17,374 bases of DNA from Fidelibacterota bacterium (GCA_002729175.1 PBTS01000039.1:2224-19597), one strand, 5' to 3'. Shown: positions 5,758 to 15,484, counted from the stretch's first letter. Numbers and translations: made by a program. Notes: generated by a model from the sequence alone, not told the origin.

Positions 5758-7344
5758 ATGTGTGGAATTTTTGCCTATAAGGGCAACACATATAGGTGGA
5801 ATGATTTAAAACCCCACGTAGATAAAATACAATATAGGGGCCCAGATAATTCACACGAGAAACAGATCAATGCGAATACAATTTTTGCATTTCATCGGTT
5901 AGCAATAATAGGAACAAGTGAGGCTGGAGACCAACCCCTGTTTCACCCAGAAGATGGAGGCATTTCAATTGTCTGTAATGGAGAAATCTATAATTATGTA
6001 ATATTAGCGAAGAAATATGGAATTGATTTAAAAAGCGGATCTGACTGTGAAATAATTCTGCATTTATATAAACGGTTTGGTATTAAAAAAACGATAGAAT
6101 CCCTTGATGGCGTCTTTATGTTTGTGTTAAACGATCAAAACAAGCAGGAACTATTTGCTGGAAGAGATCCATTTGGTGTGAGGCCTGGGTTTGTAGGACG
6201 AAAGGGGCACGAGATTATGTTTGCATCAGAAGCAAAACCTCTCATTGGTTTGTGTGACAAAATCGATCAGTTTAGCCCGGGCCACTGGTGGCAGCTATCC
6301 ACAGATAAATTCTCCAAATATAATTTTAATAATGATATCGACTTAAACGAAACGAATGAATTAAGTATTCTTGAAGGAATCCGAGAAAAGTTGACCGATG
6401 CTGTTCAAAAAAGAATGATGGCCGAAAGAGAAATTGGATCACTGTTGTCTGGCGGGCTTGATTCAAGTTTAATTTCTGCGTTGGTGAACCAATTTCATAC
6501 TGGACCAACCTTAAAAACTTTTTCAATTGGTATGCCTGGAAGCATCGATTTAGATTATGCGCAAATTGTTGCAAACCACATAGGCACAGACCATCACCAG
6601 ATTCAAATATCAAAAGAAGCATTCTTAGATGCAATTGAAACGGTTATATATAATATAGAATCCTTTGATACCACGACAGTGCGAGCAAGCGTTGGTAACT
6701 ATCTTGTTTCAAAATATATTCGAGAAAACTCGGACTGTAAAGTTATTTTTAATGGTGATGGTAGCGATGAGGTCTGTGGTGGGTATGTATATATGAAAAA
6801 CGCACCGACGGAGAACGATTTTCAACTGGAATGCAATCGTCTCGTTGATGAAATTCATTGGTTTGATGTATTGAGATCCGATCGAAGCATAAGCTCAAAC
6901 GGACTAGAAGCGCGGACACCGTTTTTAGACAAAGCTTTTGTTCAATACTATTTATCCATCCCCGCTAAAATGAAAACATTTGATGGGAAGCTCCGATTGG
7001 AAAAATATTTATTACGAAAAGCATTCGACCAATCAGAATTGTTGCCGGAATCTGTATTATGGAGAAGAAAATGTGCATTCTCTGATGGTGTTAGTGCCAA
7101 AGACAATTCATGGCATCACGTAATCCAATCATTTGTAGATAGTAAAATTTCTGACGAGGAGTACAAAACAAAATCGAAAGCATATGTTCATTGTAAACCC
7201 ATTTTAAAAGAGAGCTATTATTACAGAAAAGTCTTCGAATCTATTTTTGGGAAGCAGGAAAAACTTATTCCGCATTTTTGGATGCCGAAATGGGTTGAAA
7301 CCAATGATCCATCTGCAAGAGAGATGACCGGTTACATAGAATAA
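5758..7344 (+). CDS. asnB: Asparagine synthase (glutamine-hydrolysing)
   Basis: True start is the ATG at 5758 (MCGIF, N-terminal nucleophile Cys), with AAAGGA RBS at 5746-5751. Motifs RGPD, FHRLAI, CNGEIYN, RDPFGVRP, LLSGGLDSS, GDGSDE and LEARTPFLD. Confidence 0.96.
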   Translation: MCGIFAYKGNTYRWNDLKPHVDKIQYRGPDNSHEKQINANTIFAFHRLAIIGTSEAGDQPLFHPEDGGISIVCNGEIYNYVILAKKYGIDLKSGSDCEIILHLYKRFGIKKTIESLDGVFMFVLNDQNKQELFAGRDPFGVRPGFVGRKGHEIMFASEAKPLIGLCDKIDQFSPGHWWQLSTDKFSKYNFNNDIDLNETNELSILEGIREKLTDAVQKRMMAEREIGSLLSGGLDSSLISALVNQFHTGPTLKTFSIGMPGSIDLDYAQIVANHIGTDHHQIQISKEAFLDAIETVIYNIESFDTTTVRASVGNYLVSKYIRENSDCKVIFNGDGSDEVCGGYVYMKNAPTENDFQLECNRLVDEIHWFDVLRSDRSISSNGLEARTPFLDKAFVQYYLSIPAKMKTFDGKLRLEKYLLRKAFDQSELLPESVLWRRKCAFSDGVSAKDNSWHHVIQSFVDSKISDEEYKTKSKAYVHCKPILKESYYYRKVFESIFGKQEKLIPHFWMPKWVETNDPSAREMTGYIE

Positions 7345-7383
7345 AAAACCCTGCTCATCCGTTTTGGGAAAGCAGGGTTTTTT
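7343..7383. terminator. Bidirectional intrinsic terminator between the convergent asnB and fliG-like genes
   Basis: Perfect 13-bp inverted repeat AAAAAACCCTGCT (7343-7355) / AGCAGGGTTTTTT (7371-7383), giving a U-tract on either strand. Confidence 0.9.
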
Positions 7384-7407
7384 CATTAGCGATAAATAAG
7401 AGTGAAT

Positions 7408-8340
7408 TTATTCGACGGTTTCTCCGCCAAGAAGATCTTCAAGTTTGAAGGCTCCATCACTCTCCATTTGTTTGGCAGACTGCACAATGGATTTTCTGGC
7501 ATTATCAACATCCCGCTTGGGGACCGCACCGGCAACAGGTTCGTACATTGCCTGTTTCTTTTTAGGCAACACACCAATTACTCTATCGGAAATTAATTGA
7601 TCCATTCCTTTTAGAGCCATAGCCACTGTATCCAAATCCACCGCATTCATGAGGTCTCGCAGTAGGTTGTCCGGAAAGATTTCAAAAATTGTTTCAAATG
7701 TTATGCGGTATTTTTTTACCTCTTCGGCGAGTTCCGGGTTTTCTTGTTCGAGATTAGTCATGAACATTTCTTCTTCTTCAGGATCCATCGAACCCAATAT
7801 ATCAGCTAAATCTTTACCGCCACCCCTAGAAAAAGCCACCGTTTTGGGAAGCTGTTTTGCTTTTTTCTGAAGTTTATTTGCAATTTGCACAACGGCTTCG
7901 AGAGGTACATCATTTAGGTTGCCAATACTTAAAAGAACCTGACCTTTTTCTTCTTCACCAATACGGCTTAATACTTTCATACGTTTTTCAGCAGAAAGCT
8001 GTGCGATTGAAATTGCGATTACTCGAGGTGATTCCGTAATTAACATTGCAATAATTTGTTCATCGGTTAAGTCATCTAAAAACGCGAAGGGTTTCTTGGG
8101 TTCATCAGACTCTTCATTTCCTTGAAATTTTTCACTGACAAAAGAAAAATAAAATTCTTCCATCACCTGTTTTTTTACAGAAAAAGCAACATTTTCTACA
8201 TCGCGCATGGCCGCTCGAATTTTTCGAACTTCTGTTTTGTCTAAACTCTTAACTAGGTTTAATGCGAGGCTTTCTCCAAGTACGGAAAACAGGATGGCCA
8301 CTTTTTGAAGGCCCGAAAGTTTGTTATAATCTGAAATCAT
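7408..8340 (-). CDS. fliG: FliG-like rotor protein (divergent; N, M and C domains)
   Basis: LSGLQKVAILFSVLG (FliG-N), PFAFL...ESPRVIA (EHPQ position), GG linker RGGGKDLADIL, ITFETI (MFxF position), VAMALKG and the C-terminal VPKRDVDNARKSIV. Confidence 0.85.
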   Translation of the reverse strand: MISDYNKLSGLQKVAILFSVLGESLALNLVKSLDKTEVRKIRAAMRDVENVAFSVKKQVMEEFYFSFVSEKFQGNEESDEPKKPFAFLDDLTDEQIIAMLITESPRVIAISIAQLSAEKRMKVLSRIGEEEKGQVLLSIGNLNDVPLEAVVQIANKLQKKAKQLPKTVAFSRGGGKDLADILGSMDPEEEEMFMTNLEQENPELAEEVKKYRITFETIFEIFPDNLLRDLMNAVDLDTVAMALKGMDQLISDRVIGVLPKKKQAMYEPVAGAVPKRDVDNARKSIVQSAKQMESDGAFKLEDLLGGETVE

Positions 8341-8349
8341 AATTGCCTC

Positions 8350-9855
8350 TTACTTTTTCTTTTTTTTCTTCTTCTTTTTGCCGCCACCATCATCTTCTGG
8401 CGTTTCCTGCGCTGTTGGCTCTGGTTCTGGCGGCGCTTCTTCCAAAATCCAATCCTTTACTATTTTTGAAGCTGCTTGTGGTTGACCAACGCTCATGGAC
8501 ACAACAGCTTGTTTCATATCGTTAACCTCACTTTGAAGTACGCCAATGTCTTCAATTGTTGTTGGTTTTGGTGTGGCGCGGGTTTGTTGTTCCTCAGAAA
8601 CGCTTACTGTTTCATCTTTTTTTTTAGGTTTTGGAGGATAGACCATCCAGGGTGGTGGCGGTGGCATTTGTTGCTTTGGTTTGTTCATTAAAACAAAAAC
8701 AAGAACAACCACGAGAACAATAACAAGCGCGCCAAGAATTGAAACAAAAACAATCATTCCAGTGTTGCTACCGCCAGAACGAGCTTGATTATCTAAATCG
8801 CTTTGCACCTGATCTAACATGGATAGTTTTTCAGCAATTTGGGAATCAAGGTTGGCTTTTTCTTGTAGTTTTTGTTGAACAGATGATTTGGCCTCAATGG
8901 ATGCAGAATCTGTTAATCCTGCGGTTCCAAGGAAAGCTTTTAAGTTTTGAATCTCTTCGTTGATAGATTGGAGACGTATAGAATCCTGTTTGAGTATAGA
9001 TTGTTTTTCCTGATCATAAGATCGATCTCTGGCGACCGATTCAAATTCAGCAAGCTTTGACTGAAAATAAAGACGATCTTCCTGACGTCGACCCTCTTCT
9101 GTTTCTTTATAGTTTTCAAGCTCCTGTTTCCAATCAACTTCTCCCAAACGCTCTCTTTGACTTTCAAGAGATTCAAGCTTTTCAGCAATCGTTTTTAGCA
9201 GAACCTGTTCAGCGGATTTTTCATCCCGCCGTTCTTTAAAACTGGCCGTCATAATGCTGAGCACATCTCCCCTTGGTCTATTAAAACGGGAAGCAACCAT
9301 AACAACCTGGCGGATATTTTCAATTAGTTCTGGCGCGGCCCCCTCTTGAAGAATAATACTGATTTCCATATTTCTAACACTGGCCATTGCCGATCTTTTT
9401 TCAATTTGTGTACGAGATACGACATTATTCTCTGGGGGAGAACCATCCATAGTGCTTATGTTTTCTTCGTTGTCGTTCGCCGACGTAGTTGGGGGAGTTT
9501 CTGCGGTAAAATCAAAACCTGGGATTGGTAGTCCGACACTACCGCGACTGGGCACTTCTCCATCATTTAAAAATCCTTCAGCCGCTTTTAGCGATTCAAG
9601 ATTAGATTCGCCCCCACGTGGCGAAAAAGTGGTTTGACTTTCAAACGCACTGCTGATTTCTAAATCAACACTCACATCAACAACGTACTTACGGTTGTCG
9701 ATTACTTTTTCAAGCGCACCGGCAATTCTCTTTCTCAAATCATTCTCAATCATGAGTTTTTGCGCCAAATACCCACTCGATTGGGCAAAGCCTATGTTTA
9801 AAATAAATCCGACTATGAGGGCAAAAAACAATGCCCCATTTCTCCGCTTAATCAT
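8350..9855 (-). CDS. FliF-like ring protein: signal/TM, RBM3 (YscJ/FliF C-terminal) domain, long coiled coil, TM helix, FliG-binding tail
   Basis: IENDLRKRIAGALEKVI...VVDVSVDL and VRNMEISIIL...IENIRQVVMVASRFNRPRGDVLSIMTASF match the two halves of FliF RBM3. QPQAASKIVKDWI matches the FliF C-terminal P..A..I..W motif. The ATG at 9855 is preferred over 9873 because AAGGGAG precedes it. Confidence 0.7.
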   Translation of the reverse strand: MIKRRNGALFFALIVGFILNIGFAQSSGYLAQKLMIENDLRKRIAGALEKVIDNRKYVVDVSVDLEISSAFESQTTFSPRGGESNLESLKAAEGFLNDGEVPSRGSVGLPIPGFDFTAETPPTTSANDNEENISTMDGSPPENNVVSRTQIEKRSAMASVRNMEISIILQEGAAPELIENIRQVVMVASRFNRPRGDVLSIMTASFKERRDEKSAEQVLLKTIAEKLESLESQRERLGEVDWKQELENYKETEEGRRQEDRLYFQSKLAEFESVARDRSYDQEKQSILKQDSIRLQSINEEIQNLKAFLGTAGLTDSASIEAKSSVQQKLQEKANLDSQIAEKLSMLDQVQSDLDNQARSGGSNTGMIVFVSILGALVIVLVVVLVFVLMNKPKQQMPPPPPWMVYPPKPKKKDETVSVSEEQQTRATPKPTTIEDIGVLQSEVNDMKQAVVSMSVGQPQAASKIVKDWILEEAPPEPEPTAQETPEDDGGGKKKKKKKKK

Positions 9856-9881
9856 ATTGACTCCCTTATTCATATGAATTT

Positions 9882-10676
9882 TTAATTATCCCCGGTATTT
9901 TTTGTACTAGATTCAGATCTTCCAACCGGCCCACCGCGCGGTGCCAAAAACGTGATTTCAACACGCCGGTTTCGAGATTTTTGCTGAGGGTTTGAATTGT
10001 ATTTTTGAACCAAATCCGAAGAAAGCAACTCTGTGTTTTTCCTGTCTCTTGGTACAAACTCTCCATACCCAACGGCTTCCAACCGGGTCGGGTCTACACC
10101 TAACGTGATCATTTGTCTAACGACCGCCGCTGCTCGCGCACCGGACAACTCCCAATTGCTTGGGTATTTTACTTGAAGCGCCTTTGGCAATTGGTCGCTA
10201 TCTGTGTGACCTTCAACAGCAATTTGAAAATAAGATTTCTCAACAGTTGGGATTATTTTTTTTAAAATATCAAGGAACTCCGGTTTTGTTTCTGCCGATC
10301 CAGAGCGAAAACTGATATCAGATGAAATTCCAATGGTAACACCCTTTGGACTGGTTGTAACCTCAACGGGCTTTTCTCCAGTTTTAGGATCAACTGCCAT
10401 TTCTTCAACCATTTTTTGAGCTTCTTTCTGAATGTCTCCGAGTGACATTGCTTGATTTTCAATCTCTTTTTTCTTCCCAACCGATTTACCCATTCCATCG
10501 GCCATATTTTGTAGTTTTACTGGATCGATGGTTGAGATAGCAGCCAATAATACGAAAAAAGCAAAAAGAAGGGTCATCATGTCAGCAAAAGTACCAAACC
10601 ATCCAGGCAGGCCCTCTTCAACCATCCCCATTCCTTTTCGAATGAACTGTTTTTTTTCTTGAGCTGTGGCAGCCAT
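9882..10676 (-). CDS. motB: Stator B subunit, MotB/PomB-like, with OmpA-like peptidoglycan-binding domain
   Basis: PGWFGTFADMMTLLFAFFVLL with the essential Asp; VEGHTD, YPSNWELSGARAAAV, AVGYGE and RNRRVEI. Confidence 0.93.
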   Translation of the reverse strand: MAATAQEKKQFIRKGMGMVEEGLPGWFGTFADMMTLLFAFFVLLAAISTIDPVKLQNMADGMGKSVGKKKEIENQAMSLGDIQKEAQKMVEEMAVDPKTGEKPVEVTTSPKGVTIGISSDISFRSGSAETKPEFLDILKKIIPTVEKSYFQIAVEGHTDSDQLPKALQVKYPSNWELSGARAAAVVRQMITLGVDPTRLEAVGYGEFVPRDRKNTELLSSDLVQKYNSNPQQKSRNRRVEITFLAPRGGPVGRSESSTKNTGDN

Positions 10677-10681
10677 TTAAT

Positions 10682-11452
10682 TTACTCTGCGTCTTTTTTC
10701 CACTCTTTTGGTGGGATGAATGAATTGAGTTTTTCACGAACAATAATGGGATGTTTTTTCTGATGAATTAACCGGGCAGCTTCAACTTGCAAGCTTTGTA
10801 TTGTACTGGAAAAAGATATTCGTGTTTTAATCTTATCCGCCATAGGGAGAAAAAATAAATTGGCGAGAACAGCACCATAAAAAGTTGTAATAAGTGCAGC
10901 AGACATACCCGCACCAAGAGTATCCGTTCCCCCCTCACCAAAGCCGGACAACATAACCACAAGCCCTATTAATGTTCCAACCATACCCCACGCCGGCGCC
11001 ATCGTGCCCATAGATTTGAACAATCCAGCTTGTGTGCTTTCTCTTAACTCTCGGTATTCAATTCGAGTGTTTAAAATTTCAGTAACTTCATCTAATGAAT
11101 ATCCGTCAATCACCATTTGGGCACCATCTCGAAAGAAAAAACTTTTAATGTTTCCAATGTGGTTTTCTAAATCAGCAGTACCTTTACGCGCCACCTCGGA
11201 TGCCTCAACCGCCTCATCGACAATACTACCGAGAGTATCTTTATCACCTTTAAAAACTGCACCCATAGCCGCACCAAGCTGAAGCACATCTTTTAACGGG
11301 AAGGCAACAGAAACAGACGCAATCATTCCACCCATTACAATACCAAGACTCGAAGCCGATCCAAACATCCCTAAATTTGGTGTCATTAAAAAAATACTGC
11401 CAACAATGGCTCCCATTCCTAATATGATTCCTACAAGAGTTGCAATATCCAT
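10682..11452 (-). CDS. motA: Stator A subunit, MotA/PomA-like
   Basis: MDIATLVG start, GIVMGG, ARKG...LE, APAWGMVGTLIGLVVML, GMSAALITTFYGAVLANLFFLPMADK and HPIIVREKL; 256 aa. Confidence 0.93.
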   Translation of the reverse strand: MDIATLVGIILGMGAIVGSIFLMTPNLGMFGSASSLGIVMGGMIASVSVAFPLKDVLQLGAAMGAVFKGDKDTLGSIVDEAVEASEVARKGTADLENHIGNIKSFFFRDGAQMVIDGYSLDEVTEILNTRIEYRELRESTQAGLFKSMGTMAPAWGMVGTLIGLVVMLSGFGEGGTDTLGAGMSAALITTFYGAVLANLFFLPMADKIKTRISFSSTIQSLQVEAARLIHQKKHPIIVREKLNSFIPPKEWKKDAE

Positions 11453-11454
11453 AC

Positions 11455-12807
11455 TTATTCCTTAATCATGCTGGTTGATTTCAATCGTTTTTCATGCAAT
11501 GCTTTCAGCACATTTCTCACATCATCATACTCTGGATCCATACGTAATGCAAGATTCCAATTGATGGTTGCGCGCTGAATATCCCCCAACTTAAAGTAAA
11601 TAGAACCTCGACGCGCATAGGCTAACGCTATATTTGGATTTGCGTCTAATGCTGATTCCACCTCTTGTAGTGATGTTCGATAATCTCCCGCATGGAAATA
11701 TCGCAATGAACGAGATAAATGACGCATTGCTTCATTCATTTTCTGTTCGTTTACATTATTATTTAGTCGAACCGCTTTTAAGGAGTCCTCCAAAAATTTT
11801 GAGTGGTGTTCCATAGCCGAAAGTCGAGTGATTAAATTCCGCATCTCGTTGTTCATCATTCCCATAGAATCCCGAAGAGTGGTGACCATATAATCAGCCA
11901 ACATTAGCGTTGTGTCCATTTCAGCCATATGGATGGGACCCGGTTCATAAATAGGTGGGGCCGGCCCACTCCCTGGTGTTTTGATTGCACTCCCCCTTGG
12001 AGCTGTTATTTCAAAACCAACAGTTAGGCCCGCATGACCTTCCCAATATCGTTCTTTCCATTTAGGTAATTTTTCTATGTGGGTGAACCCTAGGTTAAGG
12101 CGATAATCCGAGGTAAGGGGGATGCGGAGTCCCACATTGATGCCATTCCCGTCAAATTCACCCACAATATCTACACCGCCCCATTTTTCTAGATAGGGCG
12201 TATTAAAAACTGCACCAGCAAAAACGCCGGCATTTGTTCCCGTTATTTCTTCAGTTAGCGTATCCGTATTTACCGTATCGATTGCACCAAAACCACCCGT
12301 TCCAAAACCGATAAATGTGTTCATATTGTATTGCCCGATTTGTTTCTGGCTACTCACAATACCAAAAAAGGATAACTCTTTTGGATCTAGATTAAGACCC
12401 TTAGTTTTATTTTCGAATACAATATCTTGAAGGCCAACGGTAAACGCGATATTTTCTCTTACGTATACCCGCCGCTGGATATGAAATCCAAACTCAACAG
12501 GCGCTTTATAAGTAGAGACCTCCAAGTTGGCGAGGCGAGTGGTATCGGCGCTCTGTGCGGTAGAAAACCCAAGCGTCCACCCAGAGTTGATATCCATACT
12601 GAAATAAGCACCCCCAGCTGTATTAAATGGAGATAAATTGTGAAGCTCAGATCCAAACCCAGCTGTAAACAAATAAGGAGACGGGCCAATTGACGTATAG
12701 GGGATTTTCATCATGGGGCCCGGCCTAAGATATGCAACACGGGTTGCACCAAAAATTGTAGAAAATAATATGAGCGATAATAATAGGGTGCGGTTTATCT
12801 GTTTCAT
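11455..12807 (-). CDS. Exported protein: predicted beta-rich/outer-membrane barrel N-domain, coiled coil and C-terminal TPR
   Basis: Signal peptide; Gly/aromatic alternating strands (FTVGLQDI, NTFIGFGTG, VGEFDGNGINVGLRIP, YRLNLGF, GLTVGFEI); Pro linker; heptad segment; TPR (ALAYARRGSIYFKLGDIQRATINWNLALRMDP). ATGA overlap with the upstream gene. Confidence 0.7.
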   Translation of the reverse strand: MKQINRTLLLSLILFSTIFGATRVAYLRPGPMMKIPYTSIGPSPYLFTAGFGSELHNLSPFNTAGGAYFSMDINSGWTLGFSTAQSADTTRLANLEVSTYKAPVEFGFHIQRRVYVRENIAFTVGLQDIVFENKTKGLNLDPKELSFFGIVSSQKQIGQYNMNTFIGFGTGGFGAIDTVNTDTLTEEITGTNAGVFAGAVFNTPYLEKWGGVDIVGEFDGNGINVGLRIPLTSDYRLNLGFTHIEKLPKWKERYWEGHAGLTVGFEITAPRGSAIKTPGSGPAPPIYEPGPIHMAEMDTTLMLADYMVTTLRDSMGMMNNEMRNLITRLSAMEHHSKFLEDSLKAVRLNNNVNEQKMNEAMRHLSRSLRYFHAGDYRTSLQEVESALDANPNIALAYARRGSIYFKLGDIQRATINWNLALRMDPEYDDVRNVLKALHEKRLKSTSMIKE

Positions 12808-13652
12808 TGGTGTCCGTCAGTGGTTTTTAATTCCATTTTTGCCAATCGAAAATATTCACTATCTGGATGCTGAGAGACAACATTACTAAAAGCAATAATG
12901 GCTAACGATTCATTCCCCATTTTTCGATGCAACAACCCCTTTTGGACCAATGCATCATCAATTCTGAGTGTGCCAGTGATAGAAATTTTATTTAAAAGCT
13001 GTAACGCGTTTTCATATTGCCCCGTTTGTTGGTAAGCATCAGCAGTCCAGTATAATATGTTTTCAACAGTTTTTTTAGGCGCCTCCTGTAAATTGAGGGA
13101 TAGAAATTTACTTAATGCAGTTTGGTAATCTTCTCGTTGGTAGGCAAACACACCAGCCATATATGTTGACTGGTTAAATTCCTGTATAGGTTTAGTTTTT
13201 GTTTTTTTAACCAATTCAGTTTTAGGTGATAAGATTGGTGTGTGCTCACGTCGGTTGGAGAGGTTGTTTCTATTTTGCATTTCTGCTAAACTTTGTTTGA
13301 GTTGCCCGTTCTCCTGGCGAAGGATATTCACTTCCGTGTGAAAGGAGTTTTCTAATCGTTCGATACGGTTATTAATCCGCCCCAAAGTGGATAGTAACTC
13401 CTTGCTGGAGGCCATATACACAGAGCCGCTCTCAACTTTTTTTATTTTAAAGGAAACTTCATCAGAGGGCTTTTCAACAAAATGGGATGAAACCTCAGAC
13501 CCTTTATTGGGTTCAATTACAATACCAAGATCTAAAAAAAATATTTCTGAGAGGGGTATTTCTTGTGCGCCCAAAGATCCGATAATTAATATGAGGGGCG
13601 ACAGGTGTTTTATCAGCGGCTTTCTATGGTTTAACGGGAATTTCAAACCCAT
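12804..13652 (-). CDS. Exported coiled-coil + TPR protein (CpoB/YbgF-like architecture)
   Basis: Hydrophobic N-terminal segment ending SLGA-QE, coiled coil (LGRINNRIERLEN...LKQSLAEMQ) and three TPR-like repeats ending VVSQHPDSEY...A. The likely start is the ATG at 13652 in a TAATG overlap, not the TTG at 13670. Confidence 0.7.
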   Translation of the reverse strand: MGLKFPLNHRKPLIKHLSPLILIIGSLGAQEIPLSEIFFLDLGIVIEPNKGSEVSSHFVEKPSDEVSFKIKKVESGSVYMASSKELLSTLGRINNRIERLENSFHTEVNILRQENGQLKQSLAEMQNRNNLSNRREHTPILSPKTELVKKTKTKPIQEFNQSTYMAGVFAYQREDYQTALSKFLSLNLQEAPKKTVENILYWTADAYQQTGQYENALQLLNKISITGTLRIDDALVQKGLLHRKMGNESLAIIAFSNVVSQHPDSEYFRLAKMELKTTDGHQ

Positions 13653-14800
13653 TATTCGTACTCTTCCCAATCAATGACATAAGAGTATCCAATAAAAGAA
13701 CCAAAATCATGGGGGACATAAAGTTCGAAAGCTCCAGTGGCTCCAGGCAGGAGTGTGGCATCTGTTGTTATACCAGAATCAAAGGTGTGATATCCACCCC
13801 TTACAAAAGTTGTTAGAGTCTTTGTTTCACCGCTCCAATTTTTACGGAAGACAAAATCAACCTTAACAAAATCTGCTCTTCGACCGCCAATATTTTTTAA
13901 TTCCCCATTAAAAACATAATTACCTTGTACGTCTTTCTTTTCAGTAATATTCCCAACCAACACACAGTTTGCAGAGTATTTTTTTGATCCACCCCTTTCA
14001 GCGGATGTATACTGGGGCTCTGCCAGTTTTGGCATAGGTGGCGGTGTGTAGCTGTCACGCACTTGTTCGGGAACATATTCTGCCTGTTCTTCGGTAACAA
14101 CGTTATCAACCATCCGCACCACATCTTGTCGATTGATAATTAAGTAGCCAACAAGGGTTTCAACCTTCAAAGATTCTTCATCTTGATAAATGACTTTTCC
14201 AAAAACGGTAGAACCATTTTTCATGATAATCTCTTTGGAATAAATAGCAAGGGGGTTAACCCACATTTTACTGAGAGCTTTTAAATTTTCTAATTCTTCA
14301 TTGAGATATTTAAGCTCAGCGGTCATTTTTTTAATTTCAAAGCTAAGCTCATTAAGAATATAATCTTTTCCTGGGTCAGGTGTGAATTCTACTGCATCGA
14401 GAGCGGGGCTCTTTACCGTATCTGCTTGTGTGCCAGTTGGTGGTGAATCAGACGACAACTCAAGGTCACCTAGCTTAACATTTTTATCAGCCACCTCAAC
14501 GGGGGAGCTTAGCTTTCCGGTATCACCCCCATCGGCTTCTAATGTATAGTTACCTGGAAGCACTTTCGAAAATTCAAACTTTCCACCACCGCGCCCTAGC
14601 CGTTTTTTAGACGTTTCTGTGCGCTGGACCTCTGTTCCATCTTCTCCCAAAAGCAGGACAGTTGTTTTTACAACACCGTTTCCTTCTGGGTCAACCAGCG
14701 TTCCGGAAATGTTTTGCGGCTTCTGAGCGAACAATGTGGTTACAAGAAGGGTGAACATCACCCCAATTAGTAATTGTTTTAAAAATAATTTATTTGCCAT
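13652..14800 (-). CDS. Exported multidomain protein: carboxypeptidase-regulatory-like beta-sandwich, coiled coil, small beta domain, Pro linker, C-terminal Ig-like (FxLYD-like) domain
   Basis: Signal peptide (LFA-Q); ISGTLVD...G.FEFSKVLPGNYTLEA; heptads ELSFEIKKMTAELKYLNEELENLK; IIMKNGSTVFGKVI; GELKNIGGRRADFVKV...LLPGATGAF. GAGGT RBS upstream. Confidence 0.7.
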   Translation of the reverse strand: MANKLFLKQLLIGVMFTLLVTTLFAQKPQNISGTLVDPEGNGVVKTTVLLLGEDGTEVQRTETSKKRLGRGGGKFEFSKVLPGNYTLEADGGDTGKLSSPVEVADKNVKLGDLELSSDSPPTGTQADTVKSPALDAVEFTPDPGKDYILNELSFEIKKMTAELKYLNEELENLKALSKMWVNPLAIYSKEIIMKNGSTVFGKVIYQDEESLKVETLVGYLIINRQDVVRMVDNVVTEEQAEYVPEQVRDSYTPPPMPKLAEPQYTSAERGGSKKYSANCVLVGNITEKKDVQGNYVFNGELKNIGGRRADFVKVDFVFRKNWSGETKTLTTFVRGGYHTFDSGITTDATLLPGATGAFELYVPHDFGSFIGYSYVIDWEEYE

Positions 14801-14854
14801 TTATCTTTACCTCGGATTGTGTGGCACCTAAAGATTTAAGTCTATAGGTACGAA

Positions 14855-14883
14855 AGTTTAGCTACGTTCTGTTCTTGAATCAA
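14855..14883 (-). promoter_or_regulatory. Putative sigma70-type promoter of the seven-gene motor-like operon
   Basis: On the minus strand: TTGATT (14883-14878), 17 nt spacer, TAAACT (14860-14855), about 55 nt upstream of the ATG at 14800. Confidence 0.5.
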
Positions 14884-14932
14884 GTCAAAAATATCAGAAT
14901 AATATTTGAGGAGGAAGCATAAACTTAAAACG

Positions 14933-15484
14933 TTATTTCCAAAAGTCCTCGTAGGTTTTTTTGCGCTTTAGCAGTTGTTCTCGGGTTGAATCCACCTTTG
15001 TGCGCACTTCATTTGAAAGAAAGAGAGAAAGCGCCTTGTCGTAAGATTCAAGAGGGAGCTCAAAATCCATTTCATCCTTTTTTTCGTATGCAAGGCCCAT
15101 CCAATAATATGGGTCGCCAACAGTATCTATCGCCGTAGCTGCTTTAGCAAAAGATTGAATGGCATCCCATTGGCCATTTTTATGCCCCTTTTTATGATTG
15201 GTAATTCCCTCGGCCATATATATATGGTATTGAGCCGTTCTGTTTTTTGGATCGATCTGCAGCACCTTTTTATATTCATTTAAATTGTTTTTCGACTTTG
15301 CAACACTTAGCCGAGCATCAACAATGGCATTTCTAAGTTCGTCATCTTCTGGATTAGCAAGTAACAATGAATCGCTATTTGCAATCAAATATGATGGGTT
15401 ATTTATTGAGGGCGATAAAGAAGAACACCCCTCATATAGAAAAACGAGGAGCGTTAAAAATGTAAATATAAACGGTTTGTTCAT
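14933..15484 (-). CDS. TPR-containing putative lipoprotein
   Basis: Hydrophobic leader ending LYEG-C-SS (lipobox-like); TPR-type helices (YKKVLQIDPKN, PYYWMGLAYEK, YDKALSL). Confidence 0.7.
   Translation of the reverse strand: MNKPFIFTFLTLLVFLYEGCSSLSPSINNPSYLIANSDSLLLANPEDDELRNAIVDARLSVAKSKNNLNEYKKVLQIDPKNRTAQYHIYMAEGITNHKKGHKNGQWDAIQSFAKAATAIDTVGDPYYWMGLAYEKKDEMDFELPLESYDKALSLFLSNEVRTKVDSTREQLLKRKKTYEDFWK

Follow-up and report, generated by a model that had tools for sequence, protein, structure and literature searches.

A Conserved Seven-Gene Operon of Fidelibacterota Joins a Flagellar-Type Rotor and Stator to Envelope Proteins and Probably Encodes a Non-Flagellar Machine

Results

Seven Close-Packed Genes with a Flagellar-Type Core

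We analyzed a 17,374-nucleotide stretch of DNA from a bacterium of the Fidelibacterota, also called Marinimicrobia or SAR406 (the window; GCA_002729175.1 PBTS01000039.1:2224-19597), in which seven genes encode relatives of the flagellar motor proteins MotA, MotB, FliF and FliG together with three envelope proteins. A first-pass annotation, made from the sequence alone, had proposed that seven co-directional, close-packed genes occupy positions 7408-14800, in the order exported multidomain protein, coiled-coil/tetratricopeptide repeat (TPR) protein, beta-rich/coiled-coil/TPR protein, motA, motB, fliF-like and fliG, that they are flanked by housekeeping genes, and that the window holds no other flagellar genes. 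All of this was borne out: seven minus-strand open reading frames are present with exactly the junctions claimed, Pfam supports the order, housekeeping families make up the flanks, and no further flagellar family was matched by Pfam in the window. The analysis described below leads us to consider it likely that the seven genes specify a self-contained envelope machine other than the flagellum, with a rotor-stator core of flagellar type, driven by ions and coupled to the outer membrane. The genes are the following.

g1, 13652..14800, minus strand: 382 amino acids; exported protein, a lipoprotein in deep clades (Pfam, alignment, structure model)
g2, 12804..13670, minus strand: 288 amino acids; signal peptide, coiled coil and C-terminal TPR, with its likely start at the ATG at 13652 (Pfam, NCBIfam)
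g3, 11455..12807, minus strand: 450 amino acids; predicted outer-membrane barrel, long helix and TPR (structure model, Foldseek)
motA, 10682..11452, minus strand: 256 amino acids; flagellar-type stator A subunit (Pfam, solved relatives)
motB, 9882..10676, minus strand: 264 amino acids; stator B subunit with a transmembrane Asp, a plug and an OmpA-like peptidoglycan-binding domain (Pfam)
fliF-like, 8350..9873, minus strand: 507 amino acids; RBM3-only FliF-like protein (Pfam YscJ_FliF_C only)
fliG, 7408..8340, minus strand: 310 amino acids; N, M and C domains (Pfam)

When g2 is started at ATG 13652, its junction with g1 is a TAATG overlap; g2 and g3 share an ATGA overlap, and the remaining gaps are 2 nt (g3-motA), 5 nt (motA-motB), 8 nt (motB-fliF-like) and 9 nt (fliF-like-fliG).

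The Putative Stator and Rotor

MotA matches the Pfam family MotA_ExbB (1.2e-24), and its best solved relatives are flagellar MotA and PomA, to which it aligns over the full length (8ucs, 6.8e-38). Its orthologues conserve R89 (58/58) and E96 (54/58) of the torque loop, as well as the channel prolines P153 and P203 (58/58 each). MotB combines MotB_plug (5.7e-15) with OmpA (1.5e-12); D32 is present in all 56 orthologues, and the OmpA-type motifs G-H-x-D and N-W-E-L-S-x-x-R in 51-56 of the 56. Two features of a MotA/ExbB/TolQ-type 5:2 ion-driven motor are in place, namely the MotA_ExbB channel domain in the A subunit and a transmembrane acidic residue in the B subunit. At two other loci, motB and the fliF-like gene lie in one open frame (L041:7655-9991, 778 amino acids; L086:10195-12670, 821 amino acids), which reflects either a natural MotB::FliF-like fusion or a stop missing from the assembly.

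The FliF-like protein matches Pfam YscJ_FliF_C (PF08345) alone (4.7e-12); PF01514 was unmatched, and no NCBIfam family matched. It starts with a signal peptide or first transmembrane helix, followed by an RBM3-like domain interrupted by a variable insert with an invariant P-G (P118-G119, 61/61). The C-terminal part consists of a variable coiled coil, one transmembrane helix, a Pro-rich linker and a conserved motif resembling a FliG-docking one, and the conserved tail ends in an invariant Trp (W475, 61/61). When the family profile was compared with solved FliF, it aligned with the RBM3/collar region only (8z5s residues 270-458, 4.6e-06), and weakly with the FliG-binding end. The C-terminus itself (8350-8394) carries 9-10 lysines after an acidic stretch, a feature of the window's clade only that is absent in deep lineages; this poly-Lys repeat was skipped in read mapping. 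In the ESM Atlas, the FliF-like protein found Poribacteria at a score of 0.82.

All three domains of FliG score above their Pfam cut-offs (FliG_N 8.1e-17, FliG_M 2.3e-10, FliG_C 4.1e-19), and the protein aligns with solved FliG (3hjl, 1lkv) at 1e-23. Its EHPQR motif is degenerate, reading E-S-P-R-V, with only the E invariant (68/68). Conservation is otherwise high: E103 and Q114 are found in 68/68 orthologues and the Gly-Gly hinge, G173-G174, in 67/68. The C-terminal helix is shortened yet strongly conserved (K261 as K or R in 68/68, E267 in 61/68, R276 in 65/68).

We also predicted the complex of FliG residues 1-100 with residues 430-492 of the FliF-like tail. It scored 0.45, compared with 0.01 for the best control, a mark that 116 of 157 solved complexes attain but only 2 of 215 mismatched pairs; three runs shared at least 86% of contacts, with a partner pLDDT of at least 60. 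This lends weak support to docking. A like complex has already been solved, so the score may reflect that likeness rather than binding by the window's copy.

The Envelope Proteins

Pfam repeats of the TPR type occur in both g2 and g3, and the three upstream products all have features of envelope proteins. In g1, a CarboxypepD_reg match falls below threshold (27.9 bits against a Pfam cut-off of 32.3). Its structure model (pLDDT 78.5) begins with a lineage-specific transthyretin/CarboxypepD_reg-like domain; a conserved helix then leads into a small barrel of five strands, and a beta-sandwich forms the C-terminal part. In deep clades the alignment has a GC lipobox and lacks the N-domain, implying that g1 is a lipoprotein there. 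The g2 protein matches TPR_6 (1.4e-09). It also matches the NCBIfam model tol_pal_ybgF at 5.1e-08, but with 33.5 bits against a cut-off of 90.1, a weak match to CpoB that hints at a CpoB/YbgF-like architecture.

The model of g3 (pLDDT 75.8) has a signal peptide and a predicted outer-membrane beta-barrel of about 12 strands (residues 45-270), from which a disordered linker leads to a helix of 74 residues (299-372) and on to a C-terminal TPR region (376-448). Foldseek matched it to 12-strand barrels (9fdg, 8xua, FapF 5o68, OmpG and NanC) and to TPR arrays. In the ESM Atlas, g3 found a cluster of 409-residue TPR proteins, mostly from Candidatus Margulisiibacteriota, at 0.97 (226/256 features), and TPR/YaiO-barrel proteins of Pseudomonadota at 0.87; g3-like proteins may thus exist outside the phylum.

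The Module Is Conserved as a Block and under Selection

The linkage of the three upstream genes to motAB-fliFG, which the first-pass annotation had singled out for a neighborhood check, held across the phylum. All seven genes occur in the same order at 29 of 49 close loci; two more lack only a detectable g2, and the other 18 run off the end of a contig within the block. We also collected 20 distant loci, from other families and classes of the phylum, whose FliG is 30-48% identical to the window's. There g1, g3, motA, motB and fliG were found in order in 20/20, the fliF-like gene in 19/20 and g2 in 16/20, with g3 detected at E values of 1e-66 to 1e-113. The flanking genes change by lineage, and a scan of 21 loci revealed no further constant partner. 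In one lineage, a TPR gene of about 380 codons lies directly after fliG on the same strand (L072:10908-12050, L076:8803-9939, L080:8770-9945, L081:8732-9886) and may be an eighth operon member there.

The module is also common. In a sample of 121 genomes from the order, 90 match the window's FliG, 10 of them only at 17-24% identity, which leaves 80 with the window type. In a sample of 201 genomes from the phylum, 133 match at E <= 1e-20, one of them at only 23% identity, giving about 132/201.

The reading frames are intact across the phylum. Against five relatives, dN/dS was 0.012-0.092 in 28 gene pairs covering all seven genes (near-identical L015 pairs were excluded); the ratios are approximate because dS, at 0.7-3.1, is near saturation. 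All seven genes are under strong purifying selection, with no sign of the relaxation expected of a decaying relic.

Most Carriers Lack FlhA and FliM/N

The window corresponds to contig C60, which belongs to a bin of 1.83 Mb (G000; 93% complete, 7.1% contamination). A search of this bin with hidden Markov models for a flagellar gene set elsewhere in the genome found no FlhA, FliP, FliMN_C or flagellin (Flagellin_N), which, at 93% completeness, means not found rather than proven absent. The five genomes nearest to the window's contig gave the same picture for the families searched (Flg_bb_rod 0/5, FliMN_C 0/5), and FlhA was found in none of the four genomes of the contig's genus within the order sample.

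Across the order sample, FlhA exceeded its cut-off in 16/121 genomes and FliMN_C in 17/121; the FliMN_C control matched in four flagellated model genomes. Among the 80 carriers of the window type, 72 have neither FlhA nor FliM/N and eight have both. These eight (G020, G026, G034, G046, G057, G061, G063 and G092) carry a complete, separate flagellar locus with a second FliG, only 19-24% identical. In G034, for example, flagellar FliG, FliM/N and FlhA lie at 177-195 kb of contig C1, and the module is on C65. These surveys show that the module is independent of flagella. Together with the linkage and the purifying selection, the flagella-free carriers support the earlier proposal of a torque-generating core joined to envelope proteins for a non-flagellar task.

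Relatives of FliG

An exhaustive search with the window's FliG returned 30 representatives at E <= 1e-30. The next matches, mixed with canonical FliG, were proteins of 594-777 amino acids whose C-terminal half is FliG, that is, natural FliF::FliG fusions. When the N-terminal half of the fusion proteins was compared with the FliF-like profile, hhalign gave a probability of 75% (E 2.4e-05), and the two share a layout that includes the P-G and R-G-D motifs. A metagenome scan with one fusion protein, P0042, found a single weak 2-kb locus.

We built a quick maximum-likelihood tree of 101 FliG rows: 21 of the window type, 29 fusions, 43 canonical and eight flagellar FliG of the phylum. It is unrooted and comes from a short search, with the fusion and canonical rows chosen from the best 150 matches. 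A branch with SH-aLRT 100 splits the 21 window-type and 29 fusion rows from the 51 rows on the canonical side. The phylum's flagellar FliG is placed inside the canonical group, apart from the window type. On this quick tree, the FliF::FliG fusion proteins appear to be the nearest relatives of the window's FliG, which is an argument for a 1:1 FliF-FliG unit.

RNA-Library Evidence

The operon was found in 20 RNA runs from 10 studies, which hold 57-89% of its sampled words. These runs were selected because they hold the operon, and depth cannot rank its genes. Contigs of four runs, from four studies, together cover about 7.1-14.83 kb and bridge the gene junctions (8617-12025, 6802-12094, 12121-14822 and 12569-14796). 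This is moderate evidence that the operon is transcribed, with DNA carry-over another possible source of the contigs. Contigs of the four runs end at 14796-14849, and cover past 14819 is 0-4.5, compared with mostly 13-45 inside the operon. These contig ends and the low flank cover are a weak hint at transcript ends.

At 12065-12150, inside g3, contigs break in all four runs; many short contigs pile up there, and bin depth reaches 209-663, compared with about 20-30 elsewhere. This segment encodes the most conserved part of the g3 barrel, and Rfam has no match to it. The pile-up may consist of reads from many strains collapsing on the conserved barrel stretch.

Operon Ends, Flanks and Source Contig

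Two noncoding features bound the operon.

Intrinsic terminator after fliG, 7343..7383, minus strand (sequence and folding energy)
Intergenic region upstream of g1, 14801..14932, minus strand; the promoter is presumed to lie here, unconfirmed

The strong terminator claimed after fliG stood up to comparison with shuffled sequence: the hairpin at about 7343-7383 on the minus strand folds at -24 kcal/mol (z -6.2), a value equaled by 0/200 shuffles, and it is bidirectional in shape, with an A-run, a GC-rich stem and a T-run. A candidate promoter had also been proposed upstream of 14800. This was not confirmed, as a sigma-70 scan gave no minus-strand site in 14801-14932 and 17 sites overall against 15.7 expected. 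The combined promoter/terminator scan found nothing above chance, and it overlooked the real terminator after fliG. No RNA family was found by Rfam anywhere in the window.

The flanking genes belong to the Pfam families PPDK, asparagine synthase, GCS2, NUDIX, aldo-keto reductase, Smr and M19 peptidase. A further gene, at 14933-15484 and 132 nt upstream of g1, encodes a 183-residue TPR protein resembling a lipoprotein. It adjoins the operon in most loci of the order, though not in distant classes, and its RNA-library cover is far below that of the operon.

The window's contig is probably mis-binned. Its G+C content is 40.8%, compared with 46.1% for the bin, about 2 standard deviations below the contig mean. 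Its FliG is 56% identical to the FliG of same-genus genomes, the same figure as for the cluster on the bin's contig C64, and 87-93% identical to that of family f9/g14. The bin's own copy of the module (L089, G000:C64:1-7321) comprises a cut g3, motA, motB, the fliF-like gene and fliG, at 38-71% identity. Contig C60 thus probably comes from an f9-like organism, with one module copy per genome. Downstream of the C64 module lie genes for a MoxR AAA ATPase and a DUF58 protein. A 2.5-kb contig with an 85%-identical fliG and PPDK (L023) is filed in a Terriglobia-named bin; it is most likely a mis-binned SAR406 fragment.

Discussion

A Possible Mechanism

How might such an envelope machine work? Stators of MotA and MotB would be anchored to peptidoglycan through the OmpA-like domain of MotB, with ions passing the invariant Asp32. 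They would push a FliG ring docked on the cytoplasmic tail of the FliF-like ring protein, a ring that may be built with the RBM3-type ring-building domain alone. The periplasmic face of the ring, consisting of RBM3 and the coiled coil of variable length, could work against or on g3 with its barrel, 11-nm helix and TPR region, and the g1 lipoprotein and CpoB-like g2 would assist in the periplasm. The machine would thereby convert the ion-motive force of the inner membrane into mechanical work at the outer membrane. With neither a FliM/FliN switch nor a type III export gate, it would have a switchless, and so one-directional, rotor and would build no rod, hook or filament.

Gene content and order, conservation down to single residues, selection, presence in RNA libraries and independence from flagella are observed here; that a ring forms, that it rotates, that it touches g1-g3 and what load it drives are inferred. 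Several further points weigh against this model. MotA, MotB and FliG all score under their NCBIfam equivalog cut-offs (FliG at 116.2 bits against 226.7), and the FliG torque helix is altered: in HMMER alignments, the K-D-E-L-E of T. maritima corresponds to E-P and a three-residue gap. The coiled coil of the FliF-like protein varies in length and is missing in loci L073 and L083, so that not every copy can have one set geometry that spans the periplasm. When the g1 model was used in fold searches, only its transthyretin-like N-domain was placed, leaving the conserved core without an informative structural match. The RNA-library contigs are compatible with DNA carry-over. Finally, the module was found in 0/16 genomes of f12, a family with genomes of about 1 Mb, and families f15 and f16 have no window-type FliG, the flagellated f16 having only the distant FliG type; f26 and f30 also belong to the lineages in which the module is missing or rare. 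Whole lineages thus do without the module while retaining the remainder of the envelope, implying that it is dispensable.

Alternative Explanations

The best-surviving rival is that the operon is an energy transducer like Tol-Pal or TonB, in which MotAB energizes g3 through periplasmic partners for tethering, constriction or integrity, and the FliF-like protein and FliG form a static platform. The parts list has some appeal on this view: a g2 protein resembling CpoB/YbgF, a MotB with a Pal-like OmpA domain, a g3 predicted to be an outer-membrane barrel with a periplasmic TPR region, and a g1 that is a lipoprotein in deep clades. Moreover, the bin's only other operon of the MotA/ExbB family is an ExbB-ExbD-ExbD-TonB operon on C70, and TolB (TIGR02800) exceeded its cut-off in 0/41 relatives, in which it matched only propeller repeats of other proteins, although the control passed in E. 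coli and Caulobacter. A control in B. thetaiotaomicron, however, was likewise under the TolB cut-off, so a lack of TolB is not special to the phylum. The g2 match is also far below its cut-off, and f12, which lacks the module, still has an outer membrane. The stator belongs with flagellar MotA/PomA and not with TolQ/ExbB, and it conserves the R and E of the torque loop. Known Tol and Ton systems, moreover, have no use for a FliG that has all three domains and a conserved C-terminal helix. We regard this explanation as unlikely.

The operon could also be a motor for surface motility or secretion, which either replaces a missing GldLM/PorLM of the type IX system or drives adhesins or polymer in the fashion of gliding. 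The SprA translocon is nearly universal in the phylum sample (199/201 genomes) and is present in the bin (G000:C5:19479-25421). GldM was found in 0/41 relatives, and in the bin neither GldL nor GldN passed its cut-off. The g3 barrel, as modeled, resembles small substrate channels, KdgM-type porins and FapF, and the combination of a motor, TPR proteins and outer-membrane barrels recalls the Agl-Glt machinery of Myxococcus. No GldM or GldN match reached cut-off, but the GldM (TIGR03517) and GldL searches matched in no control genome; without that positive control, their negative results do not show absence. Distribution speaks against a strict type IX link: SprA is present in 13/13 f12 genomes and the module in 0/13, so the translocon is independent of the module. 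No type IX gene was linked to the module in the 21 flank-scanned loci, one of which has a nearby C25 peptidase with a Por_Secre_tail domain. In addition, the accessible part of one report describes the sole cultured member, Fidelibacter multiformis, as non-motile (PMC11652737), though that strain may or may not be a carrier. We consider a motility or secretion motor quite unlikely.

That the four core genes, homologous as they are to flagellar genes and found in an order with some flagellated members (FlhA over cut-off in 16/121), are the decaying remains of a flagellum since lost, or an extra rotor-stator set for a true one, is highly improbable: this is contradicted by the dN/dS values and the frames intact across the phylum, by the 72/80 carriers without FlhA and FliM/N and the separate FliG of the eight flagellated ones, by the SH-aLRT 100 branch between the window type and the phylum's flagellar FliG, which lies inside the canonical group, and by the constant linkage to three non-flagellar envelope genes.

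An Older Family of Rotary Machines?

With a non-flagellar envelope machine as the preferred reading, its ancestry can be considered. The window-type module and its FliF::FliG fusion relatives might represent a separate, ancient family of rotary machines based on FliG. Such a family would always have lacked type III export and would stand beside the flagellar rotor as its sister instead of being a pared-down flagellum. We put this forward as a speculation that we hold with considerable doubt. If true, a rotor-stator of FliF(RBM3), FliG and MotAB was driving work in the envelope before the flagellum or alongside it, which would bear on the origin of the flagellar motor and add a further kind of ion-driven rotary machine. 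With the fusion-type relatives in hand, the origin of the flagellar motor becomes testable by rooted phylogeny and structure.

In the dark ocean, SAR406/Marinimicrobia belong to the most abundant groups of bacteria, and a conserved, transcribed envelope motor in most of their members would be a major gap in what is understood of their cell biology. The module is also a natural minimal rotor-stator, with no switch, export gate or axle, and as such could be useful for studies of torque generation.

Comparison with Known Systems

To our knowledge, only a handful of ion-driven rotary machines are known, and outside the flagellum we know of no described system with a FliF/FliG rotor. The first-pass annotation likewise knew of no described system with this composition, and full-text literature searches, which gave no description of the module, agree. 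The accessible text of Thrash et al. (2017; PMC5596340) mentions Por-sorting domains in SAR406 and no motor genes; the phylum is likewise not mentioned in the accessible parts of a paper on MotAB evolution (PMC12505986) and of a preprint on the flagellum of LBCA (PMC13277936). In a review, again as far as its accessible part goes, three known proton-driven rotary motors are named: Fo ATP synthase, the flagellar motor and the type IX system (PMC9127263). The families of the parts are already known; the novelty is the system as a whole, and its function is inferred.

The closest comparison is with the flagellar motor, with which the module shares a full-length MotA of the MotA/PomA type, a MotB with plug, Asp and OmpA-like domain, a FliG with N, M and C domains, and a FliF-like RBM3/collar with a C-terminal motif resembling the FliG-binding helix. 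It differs in several respects. The window's FliF-like protein lacks RBM1 and RBM2 and has a long coiled coil between RBM3 and the transmembrane helix, and FliG has the degenerate EHPQR motif and altered torque helix. FliM/N, FlhA, FliP, rod proteins and flagellin were not found, and the core always comes with three envelope proteins: the outer-membrane barrel/TPR protein, the CpoB-like one and the lipoprotein.

With Tol-Pal (TolQRA, TolB, Pal and CpoB), the module has in common an ion-driven inner-membrane motor from the MotA/ExbB/TolQ superfamily, a peptidoglycan binder of the OmpA kind and outer-membrane partners, and its coiled-coil and TPR protein g2 weakly matches CpoB; unlike Tol-Pal, it has a flagellar-type stator and a FliG/FliF rotor, and the relatives surveyed had no TolB over the cut-off (0/41). 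The type IX/gliding motor (GldLM/PorLM with the PorKN ring) resembles it as an inner-membrane, ion-driven motor of the FCB superphylum that acts on outer-membrane-associated parts, but the rotor parts are not homologous, and the module and SprA are not co-distributed. Lastly, the FliF::FliG fusion proteins carry in one polypeptide what the window encodes as two genes, 9 nt apart.

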